Both the position numbers and the translations under genes were made by a program. Under the pieces are notes generated by a model. The model ran no database searches, was not told the origin of the DNA, and saw only the letters and a list, made by a program, of their open reading frames with translations. Positions 1 to 24,944 of a stretch of DNA of 32,000 nucleotides are shown here, piece after piece. This stretch comes from Bacillus subtilis subsp. subtilis str. 168 (GTDB lineage: Bacteria; Bacillota; Bacilli; Bacillales; Bacillaceae), in NCBI RefSeq assembly GCF_000009045.1, contig NC_000964.3:2700001-2732000 (forward strand), read 5' to 3'. Position 1 is the first letter of the stretch. Every line of letters begins with the position of its first letter.

Positions 1-32
1 ATTTTCTGATGCAGCTATTGCTATCCGTTAGT

Positions 33-569
33 TTAATTAGAACTCAGATAATCCAAGACACGGTCAACTCTTTCATTGACTGAGCAGTCGTCTTCAATCT
101 TTAACACTGGACAAGATAAATCTGCCATCCAATGTTCATGCAAAGCTCTACTTCTAACTTCCATTCCAGCATTATCATATAAAGAAGCCCACTCTAAAAA
201 TGTTTTTGATTGTTCATATTTACTGCCACCGGCTAACACTTCGTTTCCATAACGCTGAAATTCCCTGTGCCTTAGTCTCTCAAGCCGTATATCTTGTGGA
301 ATCCATAAGAAGACGACAAGGTCAAAATAACTTTTTAGATTATCGCCCCAGCCACACACTGCACCAGAAAGAATCCATTTTTCATTGATTGTTAAGTCTT
401 TTTCAAGCAACTTTCTTCTTTCAGGAATTTCTCTTTTTTTAGTGAATTTGTCTAACCAATAGTAATTATCAGTATCAAGATGCGTATGAGGCAAACGCTT
501 TGATAATGCAGCACCCAATGTTGAAGTTCCGACACCAGAGGCTCCCAATATGTGAATATTTTTTTTCAT
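33..569 (-). CDS. yqaC: P-loop nucleotide kinase-like protein (skin element)
   Basis: 178-aa ORF with an N-terminal Walker A-like GASGVGTST. SD AAGGAGGGG lies about 6 nt upstream of the ATG. Confidence 0.85.
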   Translation of the reverse strand: MKKNIHILGASGVGTSTLGAALSKRLPHTHLDTDNYYWLDKFTKKREIPERRKLLEKDLTINEKWILSGAVCGWGDNLKSYFDLVVFLWIPQDIRLERLRHREFQRYGNEVLAGGSKYEQSKTFLEWASLYDNAGMEVRSRALHEHWMADLSCPVLKIEDDCSVNERVDRVLDYLSSN

Positions 570-644
570 ACTTCCCCTCCTTATTAAGCAACCAAACTCC
601 CTGTTTGTTGCATAACGTACTTACTATTATTTTGACATAAATCC

Positions 645-731
645 CTAAAAGACCTTTACTTTTCGAGGGAAATCCAGATGCGTGTTAAAATCATAATACT
701 TACGAAAACAGTCATGATTAAACGGATTCAT
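645..731 (-). CDS. Possible 28-aa small ORF (MNPFNHDCFRKYYDFNTHLDFPRKVKVF)
   Basis: SD AAGGAG lies 7 nt upstream of the ATG at 731. It is too short for the ORF track and I recognise no homology. Confidence 0.2.
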   Translation of the reverse strand: MNPFNHDCFRKYYDFNTHLDFPRKVKVF

Positions 732-837
732 ATTCCATCTCCTTAGACGCATTTTCCTATGAAAAAAGTCTTGATTTCCATATAATATTTAAACGAATCC
801 AATTTTTAGATTGTCGTCTTTAAGGAGGTTTTTCATC

Positions 838-1356
838 TTGAGGTATACAAACAGTCATTTAGAGGATTGGATTGAAAACTTATACAAGAAGATTGATATT
901 ACAGAACCAGAACAAATTAATTTTGAACGGATTGCCGAGGCTTTAGATATCAGGCTTTCGTTTAAACCTGTTACAAGCTTCGCACTTAAACACAGCGGAA
1001 TTTATAATATATGCTTGGACAGCCGTAAAAGCCGAACTGAACAATGGTATGATTTTGCTCATGAATTTTGCCATATATATAGACATGAAGGCGATAAAAA
1101 AACAATGCCTGCAACTTGGACTGATTATTTGGATTGGCAGTCCAATTATTTTACATATCACTTTTGCATTCCAACTTGCATGTTGCGTAATATCAACCTT
1201 CCGTACATACAATCACATGCAATTGAAAATGTAGCTTGGTTATTTAAGGTATCCCCTTCATTCGCTAAGAAACGTTTAAGCATTTATTACAGGAAACTGA
1301 CTCAACATTTATTTAGTCAAACTGTTACGGGAAATTTATGCCCCCCCTTTTTGTAA
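838..1356 (+). CDS. yqaB: ImmA/IrrE-family zinc metallopeptidase (skin element)
   Basis: HEXXH motif (HEFCH) in a ~170-aa protein. SD AAGGAGG at 822-828 favours the TTG at 838 over the ORF-track start at 811. The stop codon at 1354-1356 lies inside the junction repeat. Confidence 0.85.
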
Positions 1357-1361
1357 TGAAT

Positions 1362-1754
1362 AATGAAATCCTCATGCATTTGCGCGCATTGAAAAAAACA
1401 AAAAAAGACGTCTCCCTTCACGATCCGATCGGGCAGGATAAGGAAGGGAATGAAATAAGCCTGATTGACGTTTTGAAATCAGAAAACGAAGACGTGATAG
1501 ATACGATCCAGCTCAATATGGAGCTTGAAAAAGTGAAACAATACATTGACATTTTAGATGACCGTGAGAAGGAAGTGATTGTCGGGCGGTTTGGACTTGA
1601 TTTGAAGAAGGAAAAAACGCAGCGAGAGATTGCCAAAGAACTCGGTATCTCACGCAGCTATGTATCGCGGATTGAAAAGCGGGCGCTGATGAAGATGTTT
1701 CATGAGTTTTATCGGGCAGAGAAGGAAAAGCGGAAGAAGGCGAAGGGGAAATAA
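1362..1754 (+). CDS. spoIIIC: 3' segment of split sigma-K gene (C-terminal regions 3-4 of SigK); not an independent gene
   Basis: The translation [17 protein letters not shown]...[23 protein letters not shown]...KAKGK is the sigma-70 region 4 HTH and the SigK C-terminus. The ATG at 1338 is fortuitous element sequence with no SD. Confidence 0.9.
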
Positions 1755-1762
1755 TGCAGAAG

Positions 1763-1795
1763 AAGCCGGATCTCATACTCCGGCTTTCTCTATTT
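1763..1795 (+). terminator. Rho-independent terminator of sigK
   Basis: Stem AAGCCGGA (1763-1770) pairs with TCCGGCTT (1779-1786), followed by a T-rich tract. Confidence 0.75.
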
Positions 1796-1820
1796 GAAAG
1801 AGTTATGAAAATCATTTTTT

Positions 1821-2049
1821 TCATCGCTGATAAGCTCTCCGAGAAAGACAGGCAGGATCGTAACAAATAACTTGACTTATAATCCTCCCGCAGGCATTCA
1901 AAGCCGGACGTTCTAAAAGCTCTCCTGAGAAAATCCTTAGATCGGTATACTTCAGTACATCTTTAGTCCCTGCTTTCTTTATACAGGCCTCGATCTGGCT
2001 GTCGATGCTCGATCCCTTGATCGCTTGTTCCACGATATATTGCTATCAC
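1821..2049 (-). pseudogene. N-terminal catalytic-domain relic of a large serine recombinase (SpoIVCA-like)
   Basis: SD GGCAGGAGAT is followed by GTG ATA GCA ATA TAT CGT (VIAIYR). A frame break follows, then EQAIKGSSIDSQIEACIKKAG...FSGELLERPALN...ISQVICYDPACLSRR and a stop. The resolvase motifs are present (IAIY-R, SG-x4-RP, YD-xx-LSR), but the catalytic VST segment is deleted and about 425 aa are missing. Confidence 0.75.
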
Positions 2050-2143
2050 CCTGGATCTCCTGCCTATAAAGTTTTATTAAATAATGATAGCAATCGTTCA
2101 TGCATTTGTCAGTTTGCAGTCCCTCGATGATTATTACCTTCAT
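1979..2143 (-). CDS. Possible 54-aa ORF running out of frame into the recombinase relic
   Basis: SD AAGGGGTGAT (2151-2160) lies 7 nt upstream of the ATG at 2143. There is no recognisable family, and the 3' part is out-of-frame recombinase sequence. Confidence 0.2.
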   Translation of the reverse strand: MKVIIIEGLQTDKCMNDCYHYLIKLYRQEIQGDSNISWNKRSRDRASTARSRPV

Positions 2144-2206
2144 AAAATACATCACCCCTTGGGTAATGCTGCGTAATACCTGTTTGTCCTAATGAGGTGA
2201 TTTTCA

Positions 2207-2284
2207 ATGAGTATGAAAACAAATAAAAAAACCGATGGTTTGTACCATCGATCTGTTTTCTATATCACTAGGCCCTCAATATAG
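2207..2284 (+). CDS. Mini-ORF A, 25 codons (MSMKTNKKTDGLYHRSVFYITRPSI)
   Basis: SD GAGGTGA (2194-2200) lies 6 nt upstream of the ATG. The ORF contains the 2233-2250 hairpin, and its 3' end lies in repeat copy A. Confidence 0.2.
   Translation: MSMKTNKKTDGLYHRSVFYITRPSI
2233..2250. terminator. Hairpin flanked by an A-run and a T-rich run (possible bidirectional terminator)
   Basis: CGATGGT-ttgt-ACCATCG, with AAAAAAA upstream and ATCTGTTTTC downstream. Confidence 0.5.
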
Positions 2285-2320
2285 TAAATCTAGCTCATTG
2301 GTTATGAAAGCTTATTTTCA
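2246..2320. repeat. Direct repeat, copy A (partner at 7822-7906)
   Basis: Hand alignment gives 21/23 matches for the core cactagGccctcaaTatagtaaa against 7852-7874, then 21/32 over the next ungapped stretch. Gapped similarity continues on the 5' side. Confidence 0.65.
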
Positions 2321-2687
2321 TTACACACTATATATTCATTTGTTATCATTTCTATACGTTTATATCAATTATGGTAAAAAATGGTTACAAAAACCCAATA
2401 AACGTCCAACCTAACTTTTTCATCTTATTTATTAAGAATTTTAACCTCTTCCTTGTGAAATAAAGAAGCGATTTTCATCTCCAAACAGTTAATGCTATTT
2501 CATCGGGACATGTCTGTTAAAGTAGCCAATAAATACATTCGGATATCCACTTACAACCACGATTCAATTTGATCCACTACAGATTTCTGAGCTGACATTA
2601 AACAGATAGAGTTATAAAAATCTGTACCAGTTCCCTTTCACAATTAGGACATTTCGGCGGCGTTTCGGCATAATGCGAACTAATTTA

Positions 2688-3107
2688 TTAATGTTCAACA
2701 ACAGAATTTCGTCTATTGGCAATAAAGAATCCACAAATCATTGCAAGAATGGCCATCGCCCACCAGAACGTTGAGATCGCCTGATCATGATCGATGATAA
2801 TCAAACGAATGACAGCTGTGATGCCAATATAAATGAAGTAGCGAAGCGGAAAATGAAAGTCTGATTTGAAGTATTTGATAATCAAAGCAATGAACTCAAA
2901 GTACATGAAGAATATAAGCAGTTCTCCAAGCATCTCATAATAGCTGTCCACTTTGTTGAACAGTGACTTGTATACGAATAGCACAATGTACCAAGTCTCG
3001 CTGATCAGAAGTGCGCTTAAGGCTAACGCCAGAAAGAACAGACAGACGTTGAGAAGCGCTTGTAACAGGTAAGGCACCTTTTTGAATTTGTTAGAAAATC
3101 TCATCAT
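2688..3107 (-). CDS. yrkR: PsiE-family (phosphate-starvation-inducible E-like) membrane protein
   Basis: 139-aa ORF with four hydrophobic segments and a PsiE-like sequence. It lies 42 nt downstream of yrkQ. Confidence 0.8.
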   Translation of the reverse strand: MMRFSNKFKKVPYLLQALLNVCLFFLALALSALLISETWYIVLFVYKSLFNKVDSYYEMLGELLIFFMYFEFIALIIKYFKSDFHFPLRYFIYIGITAVIRLIIIDHDQAISTFWWAMAILAMICGFFIANRRNSVVEH

Positions 3108-3149
3108 GTTGTCTCCTATTTCAATATATTCGTGGTTTTTATTCTCAGC

Positions 3150-4448
3150 CTACATCTTGGTGTTCCAAAATCGTAGCACAATGTAGTACTTAGAATTCTT
3201 TTGTATACTGTGAAACTGTCCCTGCATGCGGGACATCATTCGCGCAATGCTTCTTTCACCGAGTCCGTTGCTTTCCGGTGTTATATCTGCAAGTTTAATC
3301 GTATTGCTAACATGGATCTCAAATATCTCTTGATCCGATACAAACGTGATACTGATTTTTTCTTCCGGATCTGCGTATTTCAATAAGTTTGACATCACAT
3401 TATCAAATACACGACCAAGCTCCTCCAAATTCACGTTAATATAGGTTTCCGGCAGCTCGCCTGAAATATGGACCCGAAAATGCTCCTGATGAAGGATAGC
3501 AATCTGATCTGATATTAGATCGTAGATCACTTCTTTCACTGCAACGGTCTCCAGATCGGCCTCATATTCCTTGTTCAGCAGGAAATACGCAAACAGATTG
3601 TCAGACAAGCTTTTTAATTGCAGTGCTTTACCATAAGCATTGGCTACATACCGATCTTTGCTGGCACCCGCTTCGCCTCCCTCTTTTTTGGCAAACTCCA
3701 GATTCATGATCAGCGACGTCAGCGGTGTGCGCATATCGTGCGACATTTCGGTAACCAGGCTGCGGCTCTCAGCTTGCAATTCCTCGATAGCTTTAAGTTT
3801 ATCCAGGAAAGCTTTCCGCAGATCCTCAATGCTCTTTGCAATCATCGCTAATTCATCATGCCCTTTTATCGTCATCTCGTAGTCCAGTTCGCCCCCTTCA
3901 AGAATATGAATCTCTTGATGAATCGTTTTAAGGTAGCGAAGACTTTGGCGAATTCCGAAGAGAACAATGATTAAAAAGATGAGGGTTGCCCCGAGCAAAT
4001 CCAATGCAAAGGCCAGATCATAATATCGGGAAGAGTAGAAACCGTCGATAATGACTCGTCCTTCACCATCGCTAAACTTGACAGGATGTGAATGATTTTG
4101 AGCGTACTGAGTCAGCTTTTCCTTTCCATAATCCGATTCGGAATAAATAGAATCATATTGCAGCTCCTGATCCTTGAATATGGTGAGGTTAATGTAATTT
4201 TCTTTTTTGACCCACTCGCCAAACGCTTTTCTATCTGATGTAGACAACTCATTTTCTGAAACGTACTTGCTGAATTTTTGAATGTATCTTGCTGACTCCT
4301 CGTGATAATACTCTTCCGAACTCAGATATCCCTCGATCAGATCATCTGTGATCTTTTGCAACGTCAGAAAGATCACACCACTCACAATCGCAGCAACCAT
4401 TATCAGCAAAGCCAGTTTTTTGGTTAGCGTAAATTTAAGATGCGCCAA
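3150..4448 (-). CDS. yrkQ: Two-component sensor histidine kinase
   Basis: Two TM segments flank a ~130-aa extracytoplasmic region. It has the H-box MSHDMRTPLTSL and a C-terminal HATPase domain. Its start overlaps the yrkP stop by 14 nt. Confidence 0.9.
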   Translation of the reverse strand: MAHLKFTLTKKLALLIMVAAIVSGVIFLTLQKITDDLIEGYLSSEEYYHEESARYIQKFSKYVSENELSTSDRKAFGEWVKKENYINLTIFKDQELQYDSIYSESDYGKEKLTQYAQNHSHPVKFSDGEGRVIIDGFYSSRYYDLAFALDLLGATLIFLIIVLFGIRQSLRYLKTIHQEIHILEGGELDYEMTIKGHDELAMIAKSIEDLRKAFLDKLKAIEELQAESRSLVTEMSHDMRTPLTSLIMNLEFAKKEGGEAGASKDRYVANAYGKALQLKSLSDNLFAYFLLNKEYEADLETVAVKEVIYDLISDQIAILHQEHFRVHISGELPETYINVNLEELGRVFDNVMSNLLKYADPEEKISITFVSDQEIFEIHVSNTIKLADITPESNGLGERSIARMMSRMQGQFHSIQKNSKYYIVLRFWNTKM

Positions 4449-5130
4449 ATCGATATCCTCTTCCCCATTCAGTTTTTATATAAACCGGACGTGCCGGATC
4501 ATCCTCAATTTTGGAGCGCAGCTTCCGTATATGCACCATCACCGTATTGTTGGAACAGTAAAAGTAAGGCTGTCCCCACACACTCTCATATATATTTTGG
4601 GCAGAAAATATTTTGTTGCGTTTGTTCATCAGAAGTTTCAGGATACGATACTCCAGATCTGACAACTTGATTTGCTTCTCCTCTTTCCACACCTCATTAA
4701 ATTCTTCGCTCACTCTTAGTTTGCCCCCGATAAGAAATGTTTCTTCCTGTTCCTTCTTTTCCTGATAGATAGTATATCTGCGTAATTGAGCAATCACTCT
4801 AGCGTGAAGTTCCTCTTCCGAGAATGGTTTAGTCATATAATCATCGCCGCCGGCGAGTAATCCCTCAGTTTTATCGAGTGTACTCGATCTGGCCGTCAGA
4901 AACAGAATCGGGACGTTAGAGGATTTCCTGATGTGCTGACATGTTTCAATTCCCGAAATGCCTGGCATCATAATATCCAAAATAACCAAATCAAGCGAGT
5001 CATTCACAAGTTGCAATGCTCGCTTTCCATCCTTGGCTCTTAGCACCTCGTAACCTGCACGTGTAAGGGATTCCTCCAAAAGATCACCAATATCCTCATC
5101 ATCCTCTACGACTAATATTCGATAGGCCAT
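4435..5130 (-). CDS. yrkP: OmpR/PhoB-family response regulator
   Basis: Receiver domain (ILVVEDDEDI...LVILDIMMPG...TKP) plus a winged-helix C-terminus (RPVYIKTEWGRGYRF). Confidence 0.92.
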   Translation of the reverse strand: MAYRILVVEDDEDIGDLLEESLTRAGYEVLRAKDGKRALQLVNDSLDLVILDIMMPGISGIETCQHIRKSSNVPILFLTARSSTLDKTEGLLAGGDDYMTKPFSEEELHARVIAQLRRYTIYQEKKEQEETFLIGGKLRVSEEFNEVWKEEKQIKLSDLEYRILKLLMNKRNKIFSAQNIYESVWGQPYFYCSNNTVMVHIRKLRSKIEDDPARPVYIKTEWGRGYRFGAS

Positions 5131-5222
5131 GTCTCTCTCACCTCATGATTCTTGTTGTTATTTCTCGTGTGTCCTTACTATATATCGTTCATAGTAATAA
5201 GTACGTTATAAGATACTACGTA

Positions 5223-5311
5223 AATCTTAACAATTTATGAAAGCTGATGCTCGCCACAAATTTGTCACATTTTCTAAAAAAAATGATGACTCTTCATAAA
5301 TTGTTAAGATT
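5223..5311. promoter_or_regulatory. Perfect 19-bp inverted repeat (5223-5241 / 5293-5311) in the yrkP-yrkO divergent control region
   Basis: AATCTTAACAATTTATGAA and its exact reverse complement are separated by 51 nt. The spacer contains the palindrome ACAAATTTGT. The arms lie 92 nt and 86 nt from the two divergent start codons. Confidence 0.5.
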
Positions 5312-5397
5312 CGGTCTTTATATTTATCCATTGTAAGGCTCAAGTTTTTCAGATCCGCACTACACATTGCCGTGATAAATGGGAAAGGAGTATTGAT

Positions 5398-6615
5398 ATG
5401 ATTGTACAAAAAGAAGGACGCGGGCAACCGGTGAGTCTGCGGGAACGGGTTCATTTTCTGGACATCGTACGAGGATTTGCCTTGCTTGGCATTATTATTG
5501 TCAATTATTTTCTGATCGTAGATTCAGTAAAGGGATTCGAAATGGCCTCCGATGACGTACTGCATAAGCTGGTTTCCTGGTTTGCCGAAGGGAAATTCGT
5601 TACGTTATTCTCCTTCCTGTTCGGAGTCGGGTTTATGATCTTTATGGATCGAGCCGCGCAGAAGGTAGAGAGTCCCAACAAGCTGTTTGCCCGCAGGTTA
5701 TCTATCCTGTTGGGATTTGGCATTTTGCACATCACATTTGTTTGGGTCGGTGACATATTGGCCTTTTACGCCGTAAGTGGCTTCCTGTTACTCGCCTTCT
5801 ATAAACGCACGGCCAAAACGGTGCTTAGATGGATTATCGCACTTATCGTGTTTCAATTCCTGACTCCTGTTTTCACAATGTTGTACAATGTCATCAATAC
5901 TGCAGGGTCAAAAAACCCGAATTTTTCAGAGTTTACTTTGTTTAGCCACAGCAGCCTTACCTACATGGAATCCATCAGCACTCGGTGGACAGATATGGTC
6001 ACGATGGCTGCCGGCTCTTTCTCTATGATCTATTCCATGTTTCTCATGTTTCTGCTGGGCGTGTACTTTGTTAAGATGGAATTTTTCAAAGACATGGAAG
6101 CGAAAAAGCCTATATGGAAGCGTATCTGGATCATTAGCACAATCGCTTTTCTAATAACACAAAGCAGTATATTACTAGACATGTTTAATCTTTCTGAGAA
6201 TATGCTGTGGAAGGACATTTCCTCTGTCTTGGGTCAAAATGGCGGCTTAACCGGAAGTATGTTTTATATGAGCACTTTTGCAATGCTGTTTCTATACCTT
6301 CCTCAGCTGCGAGGCCCTATGATGATATTCACCAAAGTCGGACGGATGTCATTGACCTGTTATCTGCTTCACTCTATCATTGGAACAGTTCTGTTCCTCA
6401 GGTACGGATTCGGGCTTGCGGATCATATTCAATCCGCCGGCACGTTCATGTTCAGTCTGGCCGTGTACTTCGTTCTTATGAGCTTTAGTACATTGTGGTT
6501 GAAACGGTTTAGGTACGGTCCGATGGAATTAGTATGGCGCAAGCTGACGTACGGCAAAGTAAACGGGAGTCCCAAAGCAACTCCGCTGCATTCGGAAAAA
6601 TCTATTCAGAAATAA
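5398..6615 (+). CDS. yrkO: DUF418/YeiB-like polytopic membrane protein
   Basis: 405-aa ORF with many TM segments and the N-terminal signature [28 protein letters not shown] precedes it. Confidence 0.85.
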
Positions 6616-8942: not shown

Positions 8943-9419
8943 TTAAGGAGATACTTTATCACCAACTTTAAATAATAATGGAATAAGTGCTAATAAAATA
9001 ATTCCTACAACCAACGTAGATATTATTAACTCCTTCCATACAATCAAATTCTTTAAAAACATTTGATAAATAACTAATGAGTTTACTGGAATGTTAAGCA
9101 ATAAGCCCGTAAGAAGTCCAGGTGCATACTTTTTCATTACAACAGTTGCGATAAGATGTGGAAAAATAGCGTTGATAACCATAGAACCTAGAAAGCCAAT
9201 GAAAATCCATTTTGCAATATCTGATTCTGGCATATATAAAAAACCAAATGCAGATAAATAAGCCAACATAGTTATAACAATGACAGCAAAATGAAATTCA
9301 TTTGAAGTTACTGGCTTTTGAAACTTTGAAGATTGTTGTGACCACTCAGGTAACCAAATAGCTTCCTCAATATTATGAAGTGTAATAGCAAAACAAAAAA
9401 ATGCTACGAAATAAACCAC
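8943..9419 (-). CDS. yrkK: HXXEE-domain membrane protein
   Basis: 158 aa with the HNIEE motif near the N-terminus and four to five TM segments. It starts at a GTG 9 nt after SD GAGGAGG. Confidence 0.75.
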   Translation of the reverse strand: MVYFVAFFCFAITLHNIEEAIWLPEWSQQSSKFQKPVTSNEFHFAVIVITMLAYLSAFGFLYMPESDIAKWIFIGFLGSMVINAIFPHLIATVVMKKYAPGLLTGLLLNIPVNSLVIYQMFLKNLIVWKELIISTLVVGIILLALIPLLFKVGDKVSP

Positions 9420-10001
9420 CTATCATTTCCTCCTCGGTGCCACAACCAATATGGTTTGGCAACATTATATTACATTTGAGGCTGATTGGATATGGTGTTA
9501 AAAGAGAGAAGAATCTGCCTTAGTAGTTGCTTCTTAATTATATGTGCAATAACGTGTTGTTACGTGGCATGTCATATTCAAATATAATAACTCTAAAGCA
9601 AACAAAGATACCTATATAGTTTGGCATCCTCTTTTTTAGTTCGAGTCCCTCTATTTATTTTGGGCACAAAATAGACATAATTTATATTGACTCATTATAC
9701 CCATCACATACCATACCCCTTAAACCAATCAGGATTAAAATGTTTTAAAAAAGGTGATCAAAGATTAAGTTATGGTCTCTTTTATTTTATGTATGCTGTC
9801 TTAATGCAAAACAACACTGGACACCACTAAGTCAAATGCATTTCATGGTACTATAGTCAAGACTTGTCCAAGTCACCATTATCAAAATGAATTTCATCAA
9901 ACACTTGAAACATTTATTGAACGCGGCCAAGTGTCATAACATTAATAAGAAACCAACGAGTGATGAATCTTTTAATCTTTCATTTTACCCGCTGGCTCAT
10001 A

Positions 10002-10787
10002 TCAAAGGAGCTCTAACCAAATTTTAATAGCTGTCGCACCTATTAATTGCGCTAAAACCCATTGCAGGAATTTTGTATTTACTTTTTGCCCAACTGATGC
10101 GCCAATAGGAGAAGCTATTAAACTAGTAATCATAAGAACCAGAGCTGGTACAAAAAGAACCTGGCCCGTGATTACTTTTCCAACTGTTGCGCCAATGGAT
10201 GAAAGAAATGTAATCGCAAGAGATGAAGCGACTGTGACTCTAACAGGAATATTTAAAATCGATAACATAATGGGGACTAGGATAAAGGCGCCGCCAGCTC
10301 CTAAAATACCTGATACGCCACCAATGATAAACGCTAAGGAAGAAGCCAACCATTTATTAAATATCACTTCCTTATCTTCGCTATGTTCTTGTCCTTTCTG
10401 TCCTTTTTTAGGTATAAACATTAAAATAACTGCTATAATAGCCAGAATTCCGTATATAAAGTTAATTCCTTTTTCAGATATATAATGAGAAAAGTAACTC
10501 CCCAATACACTCCCTAAAAGGATGCTGCTTCCCATGTAAATAATTAATGTTTTATTTATAAGACCACTCTTACGATAAGCCCAAACACCGCCGAGTGTCG
10601 CAAAAAAAACTTGAATAGCCCCTATCCCTGAAACTTCATGGGCAGTTAATGACATCACTCCCACTAAAGAAGGAATGTACAATAGCATTGGATAATTAAT
10701 AACTGCTCCGCCAATACCAATCATTCCGGAAATAAAGGCACCAATAAACCCTATAATGAAAAGAGTTGTGATAAAGGCAATATCCAT
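10002..10787 (-). CDS. yrkJ: TauE/SafE-family anion (sulfite/organosulfonate) exporter
   Basis: 261 aa, Gly-rich and polytopic with an internal repeat typical of TauE/SafE. SD AAAGGAGG precedes it. Confidence 0.85.
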
Positions 10788-10810
10788 TTTATTTGCCTCC
10801 TTTCATAGGA

Positions 10811-10839
10811 AAAGGGTATCTTTCTATTCGATACCCTTT
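10811..10839 (-). other. Intercistronic hairpin between yrkI and yrkJ
   Basis: A 10-bp perfect stem (AAAGGGTATC / GATACCCTTT) with a 9-nt loop. No T-tract follows on the coding strand. It sits immediately upstream of the yrkJ SD. Confidence 0.5.
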
Positions 10840-10847
10840 CACATTCA

Positions 10848-11075
10848 TTAGCCTTTTTGAATCCAAAATTTCAATATATCGCCCTCGTCCGTTTGCTCTA
10901 AAAGGTCATGTCCGCCTGATTTAGACCAGGCTGTAAGATCATTTTTGGCTCCCTTATCTGTTGCATGCACTTCTAATATTTGACCTGATTCCAGTTCATT
11001 CATCGCTTTTTTTGTTCTGACAATTGGCATTGGGCATGCCAAGCCTTTTGCGTCTAATACTTTATCTGATTTCAT
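10848..11075 (-). CDS. yrkI: TusA/SirA-like sulfur carrier protein
   Basis: 75 aa with LDAKGLACPMPIV (the conserved CPxP cysteine). Confidence 0.9.
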   Translation of the reverse strand: MKSDKVLDAKGLACPMPIVRTKKAMNELESGQILEVHATDKGAKNDLTAWSKSGGHDLLEQTDEGDILKFWIQKG

Positions 11076-11108
11076 GTTCTTCTCTCCTCTTTTTAGCAGA
11101 AACTTGTG

Positions 11109-12242
11109 TTACCGTATTGCACAGCGGTTTGGGCCAATCTCCATTTCACGCTGTTTTTCTTCATCTGGGCTGATTTTCCCCATGTTTGTTTCTCGAATCT
11201 CTTGGTATGCATTTGGTTGCGGAGGCAAATGATCTGTTACTAGGTGTCTAAATTCTGTTTCATCCGCAATGTTCAAACCATGGTTCTCGCTAAATAATGT
11301 ACTTAGTTGTTTACCAACACTTCCATTCTCATTTAGCTCGTCAATGATCATAAAGTGTGCCGGTAATACAATTAAATCCTTTGATAACGCTTTGTAACGG
11401 CTATAAAGCGTTTTTCTTAAATCTCCTACCCAATCTTCTGCCATACCGGCTAAGTCTGGTCTGCCGATTGAATCAATAAACAAGATATCACCTGAAAGAA
11501 GATACTGGTCATCGACAATGAAAGAAGTGGAGCCAATCGTGTGCCCCGGAGAATAAATCGGTTGAATTTTAATCGTTGTATTTCCAATAATAATGTCATT
11601 TCCTTCTTCCAACGGCTGATAATCGAATTCCACTTCTTCAGCATCTTTAGGCGGTAACCAGTAGGTTGCTTTTGTTTTTTCAGCAATGACTCTGCCGCCT
11701 GAAATATGGTCCGCGTGAAGATGTGTATCAAATACGTGAGTAATCGTTGCACCCTTCCCCTTCGCAAAATCTATAAAGAAATTCACCATACGTGTCGCAT
11801 CAATAATTGCTGCTTCACCATTGGAAATGACCATGTATGACAAGCAGCCTTTACCGATTCGAACAAACTGATACATCTCACCGCCATCTTTTAAATCCCC
11901 GACTTTTACCGGCTCTAAATGTTCGCTCCATGCTTTCATTCCACCCTTAAGGTAGGATACAGAATGACCTGCTTCAGAAAGCATTTCGGATACCATGACG
12001 GATGAACCTTCTTTTGCGCAAACGACCAGCACTTCTTTATCAGAAGGAATTTTCTCCAAGATATCTTCTACGCCATCTAAAAGATCAAAATAAGGAACAT
12101 TCAAATGGTCAAAGTCATGCCCTTCTATCTTCCAATCACTAAAATCATTTTCATTACGCACATCCAAAATAAATAAAGGTTCTTTGTTAAAGATTTTTTT
12201 GTCACTTCTTTTGGGGTCATTGCCTTTACGGTCATGTTTCAA
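11109..12242 (-). CDS. yrkH: Rhodanese-domain plus metallo-beta-lactamase-fold protein (candidate persulfide dioxygenase); the 5' end is problematic
   Basis: N-terminal rhodanese fold ([11 protein letters not shown]...VVCAKEGSS) followed by the MBL motif THLHADH. The in-frame TTG start is only 2 nt from the SD, while the well-spaced ATG (12235) is out of frame until an A7 tract (12194-12200). Confidence 0.8.
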
Positions 12243-12271
12243 TACCTCCTATATCAAATCTTTTAGCGGGA

Positions 12272-12556
12272 CTAAAACGTTAAGGATACATCAGCATCTT
12301 TCGTAAAACCAAAAAAGGTAACAGCCCCGCCTACTTCGATTCCTTCCATAAAATCATCTTTTGTTAAACCCATAACGTCCATCGTTATTTGACAACCAAA
12401 TCATGCAACTCCCATTTCAATCAGTTAAGAATAGAAGGCACATTTGCGTTCCTACAACCTTCTGCGACATGCTCTTTTCCTTGTCGCAATATTACAGACT
12501 TTATAAGCATCAAACAGACCGCTATTTGCCGCAATAATCGCTACTCTTGTACTCAT
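12272..12556 (-). pseudogene. Decayed DsrE/DsrF-like gene (paralog of yrkE)
   Basis: It reads MSTRVAIIAANSGLFDAYKVCNIAT, followed by premature stops. Other frames give GKEHVAEG.RNANVPSIL, LIEMGVA and FGCQITMDVMGLTKDDFMEGIEVGGAVTFFGFTKDADVSLTF. The last aligns with the YrkE C-terminus VKLVACTMTMDLLGL. At least three frame changes and one internal deletion are needed. Confidence 0.75.
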
Positions 12557-12576
12557 CTGTTCATCATGCTTTTTAT

Positions 12577-13134
12577 TTATTCGGTTTTACCTGTCCAATC
12601 CCGCATACCCGGGACAACATTAATAACCTTTTTAAAACCTTGTTTTTTCATGGTGCGGGCCGCCATTTCACTCCTTCTTCCCGAATGGCAGATAATATAA
12701 ATTTCATCATTTTCGTTTAATTCGTTAGCGCGCTTTTCCACTTCACCAAGAGGGATATGCACAACTCCTGGGATATGAGCTTTTTCATATTCCTCTATCT
12801 CTCGAACATCTAAAATGTTAAGAGACTCGTCACTATCTACTTTCTGTTTGAAAGCTTCTAATGAAATCTCAGGAATTGAAGATGCATTTTCTGATGAATG
12901 CTCTCCTCCTTTTCGAAGAAAATGACGAAGTATTTCTCCCTCTGCTTCAGTACCCAGATATTCATGGCCTGTACTTTTTGCCCATGCTTCCAGATCTGCT
13001 GTAGAACCTTTATCTGTCGCATGAATTTCCAATACTTCACCAGCTTTTAAATCCTTCATTCTCTTCTTCGTTTTTACGATAGGCATTGGACACGCCAAAC
13101 CTTTAGCGTCTAGTACAATAGTTGCTTTCATCAT
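12577..13134 (-). CDS. yrkF: TusA-like domain fused to a catalytic rhodanese domain
   Basis: N-terminal LDAKGLACPMPIV and a C-terminal rhodanese active-site loop CHSGRRS. SD AAAGGAGG precedes it. Confidence 0.9.
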   Translation of the reverse strand: MMKATIVLDAKGLACPMPIVKTKKRMKDLKAGEVLEIHATDKGSTADLEAWAKSTGHEYLGTEAEGEILRHFLRKGGEHSSENASSIPEISLEAFKQKVDSDESLNILDVREIEEYEKAHIPGVVHIPLGEVEKRANELNENDEIYIICHSGRRSEMAARTMKKQGFKKVINVVPGMRDWTGKTE

Positions 13135-13319
13135 TTTTTCCTCCTTTTCTTATATAGGGGTGGGGGTATACAAATATACAAAAAGTTTCTCACTGTAAGT
13201 TAACACCATGTATTCATACCCCCTTTTATATTTGTGATGTTTTTAAATCCTTGTTTCTTCAATATTTTTACTTGCCTTTAAACTTCTCATTCCGCTTAGC
13301 AATGAGTAAATGAGTAACA

Positions 13320-13802
13320 TTAGATAAATAAGTTGACACTGCCTTCCTCAGCATCTGCCAAATAAGCTGCTACACCAGCATAGTCAATATCATCTAATAG
13401 TTCTTTTTCCTGTAAACCAAGAAGATCCATTGTCATCGTACAAGCTACGAGCTTTACCCCCTGTTCTTGAGCCATCTCAATCAACTGAGGTAAAGTAAGT
13501 ACATTATGCTTTTTCATCACATTTTTAATCATTTTAGGGCCCATACCTGCAAAGTTCATTTTAGATAAACCCATCTTATCAGCACCACGAGGCATCATCT
13601 TTCCAAACATTTTTTCAAGAAATCCTTTTTTCACTGGAATCAGCTCTTCTTTACGTAAAGCGTTAAATCCCCAAAAAGTATGGAAGATCGTCACTTCATG
13701 ATCGTAGGCAGCTGCACCATTTGCAATAATATAGGCTGCCATTGCTTTATCATAATCCCCGCTAAATAAAACAATTGTTGTGCGTTTTGTTTGTTCTGTC
13801 AT
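13320..13802 (-). CDS. yrkE: DsrE/DsrF-like family sulfur-relay protein
   Basis: 160 aa with TIVLFSGDYDKAMAA...FHTFWG...VACTMTMD, typical of the DsrE2/DrsE_2 family. Confidence 0.85.
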   Translation of the reverse strand: MTEQTKRTTIVLFSGDYDKAMAAYIIANGAAAYDHEVTIFHTFWGFNALRKEELIPVKKGFLEKMFGKMMPRGADKMGLSKMNFAGMGPKMIKNVMKKHNVLTLPQLIEMAQEQGVKLVACTMTMDLLGLQEKELLDDIDYAGVAAYLADAEEGSVNLFI

Positions 13803-13820
13803 GTTTATTCTCCTAACTAA

Positions 13821-13838
13821 TTACCCCTGCGGGTATAT
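13821..13838 (-). promoter_or_regulatory. CsoR/CstR-type operator OP2 in the yrkE leader
   Basis: The coding strand reads ATATACCCGCAGGGGTAA (arms TACCC/GGGTA). It ends about 18 nt before the yrkE ATG and abuts the SD. Confidence 0.6.
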
Positions 13839-13887
13839 TAAAGTCAAAAAATTTTTTCGAAAGATCTGCTTTTATTCAACTCTTTAA

Positions 13888-13904
13888 ATACCATAGGGGG
13901 TATA
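13888..13904 (-). promoter_or_regulatory. CsoR/CstR-type operator OP1 overlapping the yrkE -10/+1
   Basis: The coding strand reads TATACCCCCTATGGTAT, matching the 14633-14650 site at 15 of 17 positions. Confidence 0.65.
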
Positions 13905-13930
13905 ATATAACGCATATAAAAATTCGTCAA
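13902..13930 (-). promoter_or_regulatory. Sigma-A-type promoter of yrkE (TTGACG-17-TATTAT)
   Basis: -35 at 13925-13930, a 17-nt spacer, and -10 at 13902-13907 (minus strand). Confidence 0.6.
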
Positions 13931-13948
13931 CCTTAGGTTGATGAATTT

Positions 13949-14209
13949 TTATCGGCTCTTTACCAATAAGTCGACTGCTTCTTTTACTAAATTTTGTGTG
14001 TCTTCGCCTTTTTCTAAACTTTCACGAACACAATGTTCAAGGTTTGTGCTCACAATTAAACCCATCGCTCGATCGATCGCATTACGGGAAGCTGCTAATT
14101 GGGTCACAACCTCTCTACAATCTTTTCCTTGTTCCATCATAGTCAATACACCTTTAATTTGTCCTTCAATCCGTCGTAAGCGGTTTTTAATCTTTTGATC
14201 ATACTCCAT
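13949..14209 (-). CDS. yrkD: CsoR/RcnR-family repressor with the two-Cys CstR (persulfide sensor) pattern
   Basis: 86 aa with KNRLRRIEGQIKGV. It has Cys31 and Cys60, with Asn56 at the Cys+25 position where Cu(I)-CsoR has its His ligand. Confidence 0.85.
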   Translation of the reverse strand: MEYDQKIKNRLRRIEGQIKGVLTMMEQGKDCREVVTQLAASRNAIDRAMGLIVSTNLEHCVRESLEKGEDTQNLVKEAVDLLVKSR

Positions 14210-14230
14210 ATATCAATGAAATCCTTTCTT

Positions 14231-14548
14231 TCATTTATTTTTACATTTACATGTTGCCAGTTCATAACTGTTTACATGGATACCTTTGCGCTTTAGAAAA
14301 CGCACTCCTAAATTTAATTCCACCCGGTCACGAGCTATTATGTGTATTTTATCACGTGGAATCTCTAAATAAAAACGTTTTAGATACGCATATGGGATGT
14401 TTAAAATAATATTATCCGAAAAATTGGCTACATCGTTATAATGACGAATATCTAATATTGTGATGTCCATAGCCTCTAATTTATCTTTATGGATACAAGA
14501 GATTCCGGTTATAGGATAATAACGTCTATACGTTGCAATGATAATCAC
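14231..14548 (-). CDS. Rhodanese-homology-domain protein lacking the catalytic Cys; probably membrane-anchored and extending to 14584
   Basis: ITILDIRHYNDV...KIHIIARDRVE (Ala where the catalytic Cys is expected). The upstream in-frame codons encode a TM helix (INYLVIAFLLIFVIIIATY). SD AAGGTGGTG lies 8 nt upstream of an in-frame ATC at 14584. Confidence 0.6.
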   Translation of the reverse strand: MIIIATYRRYYPITGISCIHKDKLEAMDITILDIRHYNDVANFSDNIILNIPYAYLKRFYLEIPRDKIHIIARDRVELNLGVRFLKRKGIHVNSYELATCKCKNK

Positions 14549-14628
14549 AAAAATAAGCAGGAATGCAATAACTAAATAATTGATACTATTTACACCACCT
14601 TATTAACTCTTTGTTTATTCACAAAACA

Positions 14629-14657
14629 ATAATATACCCCCATAGGTATATAGTCAA
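14629..14657 (-). promoter_or_regulatory. Sigma-A-type promoter (TTGACT-17-TATTAT) for the rhodanese-like ORF and yrkD
   Basis: -35 at 14652-14657 and -10 at 14629-14634, with exactly 17 nt between them. Confidence 0.65.
14633..14652. promoter_or_regulatory. CsoR/CstR-type operator filling the promoter spacer
   Basis: TATACCCCCATAGGTATATA, a pseudo-palindrome with TATACC/GGTATA arms. Confidence 0.65.
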
Positions 14658-14769
14658 GTGTGAAAGTTACTTTCTTTGAGCTGATAGATTCATTTCGATA
14701 TCCGCGGATTGAAAAAATACTTACATTCGATAATGCCAATTCTGCTAAAAGGAACTCGAATAAAGCAAT

Positions 14770-14795
14770 AAGCCGATTTAATTTTAAATCGGCTT
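14770..14795. terminator. Terminator downstream of yrkC (bidirectional hairpin)
   Basis: An 11-bp perfect stem (AAGCCGATTTA / TAAATCGGCTT) with a 4-nt loop and T-rich flanks. Confidence 0.7.
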
Positions 14796-14932
14796 TATTT
14801 ATCAATTACTTAAAATTAGCACAAGACACGCTGCTTGGATATTAAATGGGGTTTCATTAGCATGGTACTGGTTCCCCATGTTTCATGCTGGATGTGACTT
14901 TAATTATTCTAGAATTCTCCAGAATATCTGTG

Positions 14933-15493
14933 CTAATCTTCCGCAGCCACTGCATCTGCTTTGGTTTCATGAACTGTACCAAATGGATGGTTAGGAGGAG
15001 CATAAATGGAGTAAAGTTTTAATGGCGTATTTCCTGTATTAATTACGTTGTGCCAAGTGCCGGCAGGGACAACAATGGCAGAATCATCATAGACATTTCT
15101 TTGAAAGTTCAAATGATCTTTGCTCTTTCCCATTTTGACGATCCCACGCCCCTGCTCAATCCGTAAGAACTGGTCAACGTTAGGATGGATTTCCAAACCA
15201 ATGTCTTCTCCAATACCAAGACTCATCAAAGTAACTTGAAAATGCTTTCCTGTCCATAAAGCAGTACGGAACGTATTGTTTTGTTTTGTGGCTCTATTGA
15301 TATTTACAACAAATGGTTTTGGTCCATAATCCTTCAAAAGAAGGTTTCTATCTTCATATGAAGAGCGCAAATCGGCACCTCTGTGTACTTTCTCCATCTC
15401 ATTTGGAATAGTCCAATAAACAGATCTTCCATCATTATACATCGGCACAGTCACATAATAATAACATTGAGGCGAAAAAGGGTTATAGTACAT
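14933..15493 (-). CDS. yrkC: Cupin-domain protein with a Tyr/Pro-rich N-terminus
   Basis: 186 aa with cupin motif 2 (PAGTWHNVIN) and a partial motif 1 (GLEIHPNVDQFLRIEQG). Confidence 0.85.
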   Translation of the reverse strand: MYYNPFSPQCYYYVTVPMYNDGRSVYWTIPNEMEKVHRGADLRSSYEDRNLLLKDYGPKPFVVNINRATKQNNTFRTALWTGKHFQVTLMSLGIGEDIGLEIHPNVDQFLRIEQGRGIVKMGKSKDHLNFQRNVYDDSAIVVPAGTWHNVINTGNTPLKLYSIYAPPNHPFGTVHETKADAVAAED

Positions 15494-22766: not shown

Positions 22767-23804
22767 TTATTCACCGTTCATTTGTTTTACAATGTATTCA
22801 GCATCATTTCCTACGCCTTGAAGCAACGCTGAACCTCGCTTATGCTGCCAAGGCAAACCTATAAAGTACAATCCTTCTACAGGTGAAACACCTCTATGAT
22901 GTATGATTCGACCTTCTTGATCCAAAACACCTTTTATATTTATCCAACATAAGGGATTCCTGAAACCAGTAGCCCAAATAATATTGTTTACTTCTAATGT
23001 AGATGAATCTTTAAAAATGATTTCATTTTGCTTTGCGGCAATGACTCTTTTTTTTAAGATGATCTCCTTCTGTTTTATTGCATGTTTTAATTCATGCCCA
23101 AATACTGGATCACCTTTCTTTTGAATGAATTTGCCTACTATTGATGTATGACTTGCATGTAAAACTCCTAGTTTATCAAACCACCAAAAGATGCTTCTTT
23201 TTCCGATCATTAAAGGGAAATAAACAAGTTTATTACTACAAGCTAAATATGTAACTCTTTCTTTGGATAATTCAACAGCTATTTGAGCACCACTATTCCC
23301 ACCACCAACTACTAGTACATTTCCATATGCCAATTGTTTTGAATTCTTATATTGTGATGAGTGTAGTTGATTAATATTATCGGATAAATCCTTTGATATT
23401 GATGGAATATTAGGGGTATGAAAAGGCCCTGTAGCAATGACAAGATTCTTCGTTTGATATTCTTCCCGATTTGTTTTTATTAAGAAATAATTCTTTATTT
23501 TTAGGACACTTATTACTTCTGTCCGTAATTGGATTGGAATTTCAAATTTTTTAACATACTTCTTTAGATAAGCAACAATTTCATTTTTTGAAGGAAATCC
23601 ATGTTTTTCTCCTTCAAGATGCATTCCAGGCAAAGAGCTATACATTCGAGAAGTAAATAAAACTAATGAGTCATACCGATCTTTCCAGCTCTCCCCCACC
23701 TCATGACTTTTATCCAAAATGATAAACTTTTGATCGGACTGCTTAAGATAATATCCTATTGAGATCCCTGCTTGACCAGCCCCGATTACTATAGTGTCGT
23801 ACAC
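22767..23804 (-). CDS. czcO: FAD-dependent pyridine nucleotide-disulfide/flavin monooxygenase-like oxidoreductase
   Basis: 345 aa with an N-terminal VIGAGQAG dinucleotide fold and a second GGGNSG motif. Confidence 0.88.
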   Translation of the reverse strand: MYDTIVIGAGQAGISIGYYLKQSDQKFIILDKSHEVGESWKDRYDSLVLFTSRMYSSLPGMHLEGEKHGFPSKNEIVAYLKKYVKKFEIPIQLRTEVISVLKIKNYFLIKTNREEYQTKNLVIATGPFHTPNIPSISKDLSDNINQLHSSQYKNSKQLAYGNVLVVGGGNSGAQIAVELSKERVTYLACSNKLVYFPLMIGKRSIFWWFDKLGVLHASHTSIVGKFIQKKGDPVFGHELKHAIKQKEIILKKRVIAAKQNEIIFKDSSTLEVNNIIWATGFRNPLCWINIKGVLDQEGRIIHHRGVSPVEGLYFIGLPWQHKRGSALLQGVGNDAEYIVKQMNGE

Positions 23805-23891
23805 ATTATCACCCCGCCAATTTCAAATTGTCAGTAGACAGAATCTGCAAAATCCTAGTTGATCTCCTCACTATAAAGTTAGATAAAAAAT

Positions 23892-24827
23892 TTAATGGTG
23901 ATGGTGGTCACGCTGCTTCTCCATTTTGGGCTGACAAAGGATCGCATTGTCGTGGTTATGCGCTTCGGTTTCCATTTGAATGGTTACGTGCGTAATGCCT
24001 TTATGCTCAAGTTCATGTTCAATTTTGCGTAAAATATTTTCACTTTCTGAAATGGTCAGTTGATCGTCAACAACTGCGTGGCAAGAAAGAGCATTCAATC
24101 CGCTTGTGATAGACCATATGTGTAAATCATGAATGTTTTGAATTCCCTCTGTCCCTTCAATTGTACGAATGATATCAGAGACATCGATATTTTCTGGAGT
24201 TCCTTCCATTAAGATGTGAATGGAATCTTTAGTCACATTGTAACCGCTTCTTAGAACAAGAATAGCCACAATGATACTAGCCAATGGATCTGCCCAGCCC
24301 CATCCAAAGAAGATGATAAGTATGGCAGCTAAAATGGCACCTACAGAGCCGAGCATATCGCTTATTACATGTAAATAAGCTCCTCTTATATTCAGATTAT
24401 TCTTTGTATCTCCGCCACTCATCATAATCCAAGCGACCAATAGATTCACAACTAACCCGATGATACTAATTGTAAGCATGCCGGTTGTTGCTACTTTTGG
24501 TGGATTAGAGAAGCGTTCGATTGCTTCATAAATGATATAAAGAGAAATAAGAATTAAGGCAGCACCGTTTATCACAGCTGCAAGAATCTCAAATCGTTTA
24601 TAGCCGAATGTCTTATTGTGATTTGCCTTTTTTTCAGCTAATGTAAAAGCAATCAGGGCAACCATTAATGAAATTGAATCACTCAGCATATGGCCTGCAT
24701 CAGATAAAAGCGCCAGGCTATTTGTTAAAAATCCACCTATAGCTTCTATAATCATATAACCTGTAATCATGATAAAAGAGATCAATAAAACCTTTTTATT
24801 TGCTCCTTCATTATGATTGTGACCCAT
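23892..24827 (-). CDS. czcD: Cation diffusion facilitator (Zn/Co/Cd/Cu efflux)
   Basis: 311 aa from the ATG at 24827 (SD AAGGAGGAG). It has His-rich termini (MGHNHNEG...RDHHHH) and the CDF signature. Confidence 0.92.
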   Translation of the reverse strand: MGHNHNEGANKKVLLISFIMITGYMIIEAIGGFLTNSLALLSDAGHMLSDSISLMVALIAFTLAEKKANHNKTFGYKRFEILAAVINGAALILISLYIIYEAIERFSNPPKVATTGMLTISIIGLVVNLLVAWIMMSGGDTKNNLNIRGAYLHVISDMLGSVGAILAAILIIFFGWGWADPLASIIVAILVLRSGYNVTKDSIHILMEGTPENIDVSDIIRTIEGTEGIQNIHDLHIWSITSGLNALSCHAVVDDQLTISESENILRKIEHELEHKGITHVTIQMETEAHNHDNAILCQPKMEKQRDHHHH

Positions 24828-24920
24828 AAAAAACTCCTCCTTACCTAAAGTTTTTAATACATATGTATTTATTATTTCAAATCTGTTATGAAGCATTCTA
24901 ACATGATACAAATAATATTT

Positions 24921-24944
24921 ATATATGAGCATGTGTTCATATAT
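24921..24944. promoter_or_regulatory. ArsR/SmtB-type (CzrA-like) operator upstream of czcD
   Basis: ATATATGAGCATGTGTTCATATAT, an imperfect 12-12 palindrome with TATATGA/TCATATA arms. Confidence 0.6.

Follow-up and report, generated by a model that had tools for sequence, protein, structure and literature searches.

Genes of the yrk cluster

The yrkD-yrkJ cluster of Bacillus subtilis subsp. subtilis str. 168 was examined in a window of 32,000 nucleotides (NC_000964.3, positions 2,700,001 to 2,732,000 of the forward strand; positions below are counted from the first nucleotide of this whole stretch). The cluster is a sulfane-sulfur stress operon under a persulfide-sensing repressor, and the system is already known. 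All genes, gene remnants and promoters described below, as well as the hairpin between yrkI and yrkJ, are on the minus strand; no strand is assigned to the operators. A first-pass annotation had listed co-oriented minus-strand genes separated by short gaps, and every open reading frame (ORF) in that list was found in place. Domains of the cluster proteins were called by Pfam profile searches; NCBIfam models were also run and returned no above-threshold family for any of them. The domain assignments given earlier to YrkD, YrkE, YrkF, YrkH, YrkI and YrkJ all hold in Pfam, and the motifs quoted with them, VACTMTMD, CPMP, CHSGRRS and THLHADH, were all found in the translations.

The product of yrkD (13949-14209) matches PF02583 and carries C31, N56 and C60, the residues of a CstR-type repressor of the CsoR family. 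The carrier modules follow. YrkE (13320-13802) is a DsrE-like sulfur carrier with its Cys in VACTMTMD; it matches DrsE_2 (PF13686) with an E-value of 1.4e-67 and PDB entry 3pnx with 3e-32, the conserved Cys being aligned. Its score lies below the NCBIfam DsrE2 equivalog cut-off (87.8 vs 210 bits). The DrsE_2 match and the conserved Cys bear out the earlier DsrE-like assignment and do not place the protein in an unrelated family. YrkF (12577-13134) is a fusion with TusA and Rhodanese matches, containing CPMP and CHSGRRS, and YrkI (10848-11075) is a stand-alone TusA by its profile match. YrkH (11109-12242) has Rhodanese and Lactamase_B matches, with THLHADH in a metallo-beta-lactamase (MBL) domain resembling that of persulfide dioxygenases (PDOs). 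The last gene, yrkJ (10002-10787; TauE match, E 8e-47), is predicted to encode an anion exporter of the TauE/SafE family. The rhodanese, TusA and DsrE modules of the CstA type and a TauE exporter are all present as separate genes (YrkF, YrkE, YrkI and YrkJ). YrkD, YrkE, YrkF, YrkI and YrkJ are undamaged, at 92-100% identity to their counterparts in relatives.

More than 550 relatives were covered by a scan with YrkH, and the best 80 loci were compared for gene order, operators and sulfide:quinone reductase (SQR). The core order in these loci is DsrE, rhodanese(s), TusA-Rhod, an optional second DsrE, Rhod-MBL, TusA and TauE. The core gene order is kept across Bacillaceae.

Repressor, operators and the pseudo-rhodanese

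YrkD matches PF02583 with an E-value of 3.4e-25 and 88.7 bits (cut-off 22.8). C31, N56 and C60 were located by direct count in the sequence; both cysteines are invariant in 59/59 relatives, and N56 is aligned with the wedge residue N55 of Streptococcus pneumoniae CstR (PDB 7mq1). YrkD shows the x-C-x-C form of the W-X-Y-Z fingerprint, with two Cys and a residue other than His in the place of the Cu ligand. It falls below the NCBIfam equivalog cut-offs of metal and formaldehyde sensors (in bits, cut-offs in brackets: RicR 51.8 (175), FrmR 43.5 (133), RcnR 35.9 (138)). The CsoR/RcnR signature with Cys31, Cys60 and Asn56 in place of His had been read earlier as the mark of a CstR; every such feature is present, and by its sequence features YrkD is a CstR-type persulfide-sensing repressor.

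The regulation of this system has been described in B. licheniformis. According to Tang et al. 2023 (PMC9918477), B. licheniformis YrkD is a CstR-type sulfane-sulfur sensor, about 50% identical to Staphylococcus aureus CstR. It binds the upstream regions of yrkD and yrkE in electrophoretic mobility shift assays (EMSA) with a Kd of ~2.3-2.4 uM, and elemental sulfur treatment abolishes this binding. Two YrkD-repressed promoters were mapped there. In vivo, the YrkD reporter was switched on by S8 and H2Sn and stayed off with NaHS, sulfite, thiosulfate, GSSG and H2O2; Cu(I) is absent from the inducers listed in the section on these tests. The YrkD of the sister species B. paralicheniformis is 93% identical to that of B. 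subtilis 168. For the CstRs of S. aureus, Enterococcus faecalis and S. pneumoniae, persulfide-driven formation of interprotomer di-, tri- and tetrasulfides and release from DNA have been published.

In B. subtilis itself, yrkEFHIJ were up by log2 6.5-11 with allicin and diallyl tetrasulfane in a 2019 study, whose authors proposed a role for these genes in detoxification of reactive sulfur species (RSS) (PMC6943732). A garlic-containing oil blend raises the yrk genes by log2 ~10, and transcriptomes other than the allicin study put the rise at ~1000-fold for this blend, for Hg(II) and for an organogold compound. Published work has essentially established the regulatory half of the earlier hypothesis. 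The accompanying remark that the function of the cluster had not been established experimentally is outdated, given the work on B. licheniformis YrkD (PMC9918477) and the induction in B. subtilis (PMC6943732).

Two sigma-A promoters are predicted in the control region. P1 (14629-14657; TTGACT, 17 nt, TATTAT) agrees with the consensus at 10/12 positions and would drive the pseudo-rhodanese-yrkD transcript. P2 (13902-13930; TTGACG, 17 nt, TATTAT) would drive yrkE-yrkJ. A weak hairpin of terminator-like form follows yrkD at 13927-13941 and overlaps the P2 -35 box. Operator O1, ATACCCCCATAGGTAT (14634-14649), is a perfect ATACC-N6-GGTAT within the spacer and -10 box of P1. O2 (13888-13903), also a perfect match, is at -10/+1 of P2, and O3 (13821-13836), with 1 mismatch, is in the yrkE leader, ~35 nt 5' of the yrkE start codon. 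The three operators proposed earlier are real and conform to ATACC-N6-GGTAT, on or just after P1 and P2. Upstream of yrkF there is a fourth, degenerate operator with 2 mismatches, judged by its match to the pattern (O4, 13154-13169), which the first-pass annotation did not contain.

At up to 1 mismatch, 3 sites were found in the window against 0.52 expected, all of them at 13821-14649. In the 80 related loci, 460 sites were counted vs ~57 in shuffles, an enrichment of ~8-fold, and 369 of them are within 400 bp upstream of cluster genes. The pattern with an N5 spacer was also tried and was not enriched; N6 is the correct spacing. The P1 -35 box and O1 are conserved in 5 species. A counterpart of O2 was found in B. 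paralicheniformis, where the operators occupy the same three positions, and relatives repeatedly carry an operator 28-40 nt before the yrkE start. O4 is conserved in the alignment with close relatives; Priestia and Metabacillus have a better-matching operator 33-38 nt before yrkF. Pseudo-palindromic operators overlapping promoters of sulfur-metabolism genes, an attribute by which CstR proteins are recognised, are present at this locus.

The ORF directly upstream of yrkD (14231-14593), named 'sulfurtransferase' or YrzM in other records, had been described as a Cys-less, membrane-anchored rhodanese-like protein. The anchor and the fold are upheld by an AlphaFold2 (AF2) model, but the protein is not Cys-less: it has three cysteines (C33, C115, C117), and only the Cys of the catalytic loop is replaced, by Ala. 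No Pfam or NCBIfam model matches it. The AF2 model is a confident one, with a predicted local distance difference test (pLDDT) score of 83.6, and consists of an N-terminal transmembrane (TM) helix and an alpha/beta domain. Its neighbours in the PDB are almost all rhodaneses (3gk5, E 1.8e-3, target-normalised TM-score 0.64), among them the rhodanese domains of CoAPR and CoADR-RHD, and by tblastn it is 24-27% identical to a TM-anchored rhodanese of relatives. Among 45 family members the catalytic-loop position is Ala in 40, Val in 3, Ser in 1, Gly in 1 and Cys in none. R24, P27 and R50 are invariant and D48 is kept in 44/45 sequences; in 41/45 loci the gene is directly upstream of yrkD/cstR on the same strand. 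The upstream ORF is a member of a real, conserved gene family with, on the model, a membrane-anchored rhodanese fold and no catalytic Cys. A function of this pseudo-rhodanese as a modulator or co-sensor of CstR is possible. C33, C115 and C117 were considered as a family-defining site and rejected: they are invariant in close homologues, but are present in only 28, 16 and 15 of the 45 sequences of the wider family. The pseudo-rhodanese-cstR pair did not surface in the retrieved literature, in which no search was aimed at the pair.

YrkH, decayed genes and SQR

In YrkH the rhodanese domain is N-terminal to the MBL domain, which matches Lactamase_B with an E-value of 4e-15. H174, H176, H179, H234 and H296 are invariant in 101/101 sequences, as are C75 in the rhodanese loop, C133, and C374 in the tail GPNRCA[IV]R; D178 and D252 (D176 and D250 in 375-aa numbering) are invariant in a 25-sequence alignment. 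The closest PDB sequences are PDOs (3tp9, CstB 3r2u, 8zbd, 4ysb, BpPRF and ETHE1 4chl), at modest E-values. In a Foldseek search with the YrkH model the top 14 matches are all PDOs; the model is of low confidence beyond about residue 250, and the AF2 pLDDT is <50 over residues 295-375, too low to place the C-terminal Cys374 tail relative to the metal site. By these comparisons YrkH is PDO-like, but its architecture is not CstB-like. The earlier reading of a rhodanese joined to an HxHxDH MBL with the domain logic of CstB is thus kept for the PDO-like part and abandoned for the architecture, in which the domain order is reversed and the Cys201-Gly202 loop of CstB is missing. That loop is essential in CstB and was recently shown to be a self-sulfonating substrate mimic (PMC12934615). 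The invariant Cys133 or Cys374 of YrkH may, on sequence grounds, be a different substrate-presenting cysteine.

YrkH is unusually conserved between genera: its identity is 93% with the B. paralicheniformis protein and 85-89% with those of Priestia. This hints at lateral spread or very strong constraint. One Priestia endophytica copy of yrkH is annotated on a plasmid. Plasmid carriage or mobility of the locus was considered and rejected: one B. subtilis record labelled as a plasmid and a weak Mesobacillus match make no case.

Comparison with relatives shows four independent lesions in the cluster of strain 168, affecting a rhodanese gene, the second DsrE gene, yrkH and the start of the pseudo-rhodanese. 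The rhodanese remnant between yrkE and yrkF (13200-13311), recognised by comparison with relatives and tblastn, has lost ~305 bp vs B. rugosus, B. stercoris and B. spizizenii, and an extra A shifts its frame. The rhodanese of this remnant is a TM-anchored, single-domain protein, which B. rugosus, B. spizizenii and B. paralicheniformis still encode in full (122 aa). The earlier observation of a decayed second DsrE-like gene is correct. This carrier pseudogene (12272-12556), recognised in the same way, has 98-bp and 12-bp deletions and frameshifts when compared with its undamaged counterparts in B. rugosus and B. spizizenii; the gene is intact (131 aa) in B. paralicheniformis and cleanly absent in B. 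stercoris.

In yrkH, the poly-A run at 12194-12200 is A7 in 168 vs A8 in B. spizizenii, a 1-nt deletion by which the frame shifts after codon 14. The native ATG (12233-12235) is 9 nt after GGAGG. The 377-aa ORF of 168 needs instead a TTG at 12242, 2 nt past the Shine-Dalgarno (SD) sequence. A 375-aa YrkH is found in relatives and in most other B. subtilis strains, and the 377-aa form in records of the 168 lineage. As a speculation, a -1 slip on A_AAA_AAA, a classic slippery heptamer, would restore the frame. The first-pass annotation overlooked both this 5' frameshift and the rhodanese remnant.

The fourth lesion is at the start codon of the pseudo-rhodanese, which is GTG in B. spizizenii and B. 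rugosus, and GTA in 168 (14591-14593) and B. stercoris. The next in-frame start, a GTG at 14548, would drop the TM helix; a 105-aa upstream ORF appears in 168 records. In B. rugosus and B. paralicheniformis, too, the pseudo-rhodanese gene has become a pseudogene. With four lesions in 168, phenotype or enzyme work in this strain could underestimate the pathway, and strains with an intact 375-aa YrkH are better models than 168.

No SQR was found in the 32-kb window, and tblastn with the thioredoxin (Trx), NreB, NreC and SQR of B. paralicheniformis found no remnant there, in line with the earlier statement that the cluster lacks this enzyme. The sole Pyr_redox ORF in the window (22767-23804), beside a cation-efflux gene, resembles flavin-containing monooxygenases (FMO-like) and is not an SQR. 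A cation-efflux gene of the cation diffusion facilitator (CDF) type, then the FMO-like flavoprotein, occupy 22767-24932 on the minus strand. Loss of an sqr module from 168 was considered and rejected: the tblastn searches were negative, and the CstB-like PDO of B. paralicheniformis matched only the paralogous yrkH and yrkF.

An SQR-like ORF is present within 10 kb in 2/80 of the related Bacillaceae loci, and 78/80 are without one. In B. paralicheniformis a Trx-NreBC-SQR-PDO module is appended downstream of the core. In B. spizizenii TU-B-10 (positions 2-6020 of the compared locus) a block of SQR (2603-3808), PDO, rhodanese and TauE is immediately upstream of pseudo-rhodanese-yrkD, and yrkC is reduced to a 32-codon remnant at this block. 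The sqr modules dock onto the same core at different places and look like add-ons, and the core without SQR is the common form. Genes for CoADR-RHD (~564 aa, with a C-terminal rhodanese) accompany the core in 22/80 loci, with a CstR-type operator upstream in 19.

The first-pass annotation had set DsrE-like carriers in the place of SQR. This is a false contrast: CstA itself contains DsrE, and 78/80 loci have no SQR nearby. S. aureus CstA is described as a rhodanese-TusA-DsrE fusion in the B. licheniformis report (PMC9918477), and because CstA already unites these three modules, YrkE and YrkF correspond to a split CstA rather than to a substitute for SQR. In the absence of SQR the cluster would be unable to start from H2S; the core probably acts on pre-formed sulfane sulfur.

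Several features are peripheral to these genes. A hairpin with a 10 bp stem between yrkI and yrkJ (10811-10839; -17.5 kcal/mol, z = -2.95) is likely a partial terminator or processing site. It matches a hairpin tied to lower downstream expression in the B. licheniformis study. An intrinsic terminator 3' of yrkJ was looked for and none was found, and an Rfam search of 9400-15100 found no structured RNAs. On the minus strand at 9420-10001, ~120-140 bp past yrkJ are conserved with B. paralicheniformis, and 9863-9943 resembles a 41-aa ORF called in that species. A neighbouring 273-aa ORF we take to be bltR, and a cupin ORF is presumably at the position of yrkC.

Interpretation and comparison with known systems

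We consider it probable that the cluster of 168 represents a regulon conserved in Bacillaceae for the detoxification of sulfane sulfur, under the control of CstR-type YrkD. Reduced YrkD tetramers would occupy the ATACC-N6-GGTAT operators and cover P1, P2 and the yrkE leader, as suggested by the sequence and by EMSA with the B. licheniformis orthologue. Persulfides or polysulfides would then react with Cys31 and Cys60' of neighbouring protomers, with Asn56 as the wedge between them, and the resulting di-, tri- and tetrasulfide cross-links would release the DNA. In the induced cell the rhodanese Cys of YrkF may take sulfane sulfur from low-molecular-weight or protein persulfides. The sulfur may be handed along the cysteines of TusA (the N-domain of YrkF, and YrkI) and of DsrE-like YrkE to YrkH, whose Fe(II) PDO-like domain would oxidise it to sulfite, or to thiosulfate by way of the N-terminal rhodanese. 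YrkJ would export the resulting oxyanion.

A number of points weigh against this interpretation. Which way and in what order sulfur passes along the relay is an inference, and the activities of YrkE, YrkF, YrkH, YrkI and YrkJ are predicted from their sequences. The physiological function of yrkE-yrkJ is called unknown by the B. licheniformis authors (PMC9918477), and the searchable literature yielded no experimental study of the B. subtilis YrkD protein. YrkH scores 56 bits with the NCBIfam model for glyoxalase II, TIGR03413, similar to the PDO-side scores, and the Cys201-Gly202 loop of CstB is Val-Gly in YrkH ('GSPCGKSL' aligned to 'NGSVGKQL'). With four lesions the pathway may not operate in strain 168. 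Among PDB sequences YrkD matches the Ni sensor InrS best, by a narrow margin over S. pneumoniae CstR. Hg(II) and an organogold compound induce the operon as well, so that YrkD may be released by thiophilic metals, too, or by thiol stress in general.

The last two points lead to the least likely of the alternatives, that YrkD is a metal sensor (for Cu, Ni, or the soft metals Hg and Au) and that the role of the cluster is to provide or process sulfur with which metals are sequestered. YrkD does belong to the CsoR/RcnR family with InrS as its best PDB match, and Hg(II) and a Au(III) compound switch on yrkE, yrkF and yrkH together with copA, ars and cad genes. However, Asn replaces the His ligand of Cu, the RicR and RcnR cut-offs are far above the scores of YrkD, and a separate CsoR regulon is listed for B. 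subtilis in the allicin study (PMC6943732). The orthologue responds to S8 and H2Sn, and elemental sulfur releases it from DNA in vitro; soft metals and electrophiles should react with both of the YrkD thiols in a non-specific way. Hardly more probable is an assimilatory or biosynthetic relay, in which sulfur from thiosulfate or persulfide would go into cofactors, tRNA thiolation or cysteine synthesis and not into detoxification. Carriers of the TusA, DsrE and rhodanese types are well known from biosynthetic sulfur transfer, and 'biosynthesis of sulfur-containing compounds' is the heading given to the genes in one paper, but the weak NCBIfam similarity to TusA, YedF, YeeD and the MoeB/MoeZ rhodanese domains stays below the cut-offs in every case. 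Expression of the genes is off in the absence of RSS or thiol stress and climbs ~1000-fold once it sets in, the same control extends to a PDO-like enzyme and a TauE exporter, and the CstR operators of relatives also precede genes for CoADR-RHD, which resembles CoA-disulfide/persulfide reductases.

That the locus in 168 is an evolutionary relic, with its regulation kept and its pathway made non-functional by the yrkH frameshift and two lost carriers, is a more serious contender, though we hold it to be the weaker case. The four independent lesions speak for it, as do the decay of the pseudo-rhodanese in B. rugosus and B. paralicheniformis, the absence of the second DsrE in B. stercoris, and the dependence of the 377-aa YrkH on a TTG start placed 2 nt past the SD sequence. 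Yet YrkD, YrkE, YrkF, YrkI and YrkJ are intact and highly conserved, and some full-length YrkH could arise from the TTG start or by -1 slippage on A_AAA_AAA. Loci of the form 'E-F-H-TusA-TauE', without the extra rhodanese or the second DsrE, are common, so both genes are dispensable. Decay in 168 would also complement a sulfane-sulfur detoxification regulon rather than exclude it. Improbable, but above the metal and biosynthetic alternatives, is a self-contained line for oxidation of protein-bound persulfide distinct from CstAB. It would be formed by the conserved Bacillaceae core, here counted as pseudo-rhodanese-CstR, DsrE, rhodanese(s), TusA-rhodanese, an optional second DsrE, rhodanese-PDO, TusA and TauE. 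YrkH would be a separate class of PDO presenting its substrate on Cys133 or Cys374 in place of the Cys201 loop of CstB, and the dead rhodanese would be a co-sensor or modulator of the repressor.

The proposal of a CstR-controlled detoxification cluster would have been a useful prediction before 2019-2023 and now mostly repeats published work. What stays worthwhile is the relay biochemistry of YrkE, YrkF, YrkH, YrkI and YrkJ, together with the lesions of 168. The side observations (these lesions, the pseudo-rhodanese-cstR pair and the cysteine pattern of YrkH that is not that of CstB) are modest but practically useful.

The nearest described system is the yrk cluster of B. licheniformis. It has orthologous genes in the same order and a hairpin at the yrkI-yrkJ junction too (PMC9918477). 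B. licheniformis and B. paralicheniformis are like 168 in having three operator positions and two YrkD-repressed promoters. The cluster of 168, unlike theirs, ends at yrkJ and has no thioredoxin, NreBC, SQR or CstB-like PDO. In B. paralicheniformis the extra rhodanese and the second DsrE are intact and the pseudo-rhodanese is dead; the yrkH frameshift is that of 168.

The parallel to the S. aureus cst operon (cstR, tauE, cstA, cstB, sqr) drawn in the first-pass annotation is sound in the type of repressor, the carrier modules, the PDO-rhodanese fusion and TauE. Both systems have an x-C-x-C repressor, rhodanese, TusA and DsrE modules, a fusion of PDO and rhodanese, and TauE. The three domains of CstA are split over YrkF and YrkE in the yrk cluster, which has an extra TusA, YrkI. 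CstB is a PDO followed by a rhodanese, whereas in YrkH the rhodanese precedes the PDO-like MBL; YrkH is without the Cys201-Gly202 loop of CstB and has the invariant Cys133 and the C-terminal Cys374. The cst operon has sqr and the yrk cluster of 168 does not.

The cst-like operons of E. faecalis and streptococci (CstR, RhdA, RhdB, CoAPR) are likewise controlled by CstR, free of SQR and based on rhodaneses. These operons are reductive, converting CoA persulfide to H2S, whereas the yrk core has a predicted oxidative PDO-like enzyme and an exporter; no CoADR-RHD is present in the 168 window. The Dsr relay of Allochromatium vinosum, as cited in the B. licheniformis report (PMC9918477), employs the same Rhd, TusA and DsrE families, implying Cys-to-Cys transfer of persulfide. 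The terminal acceptor of that relay is DsrC/DsrAB; in the yrk cluster this place is presumably taken by the PDO-like enzyme YrkH.

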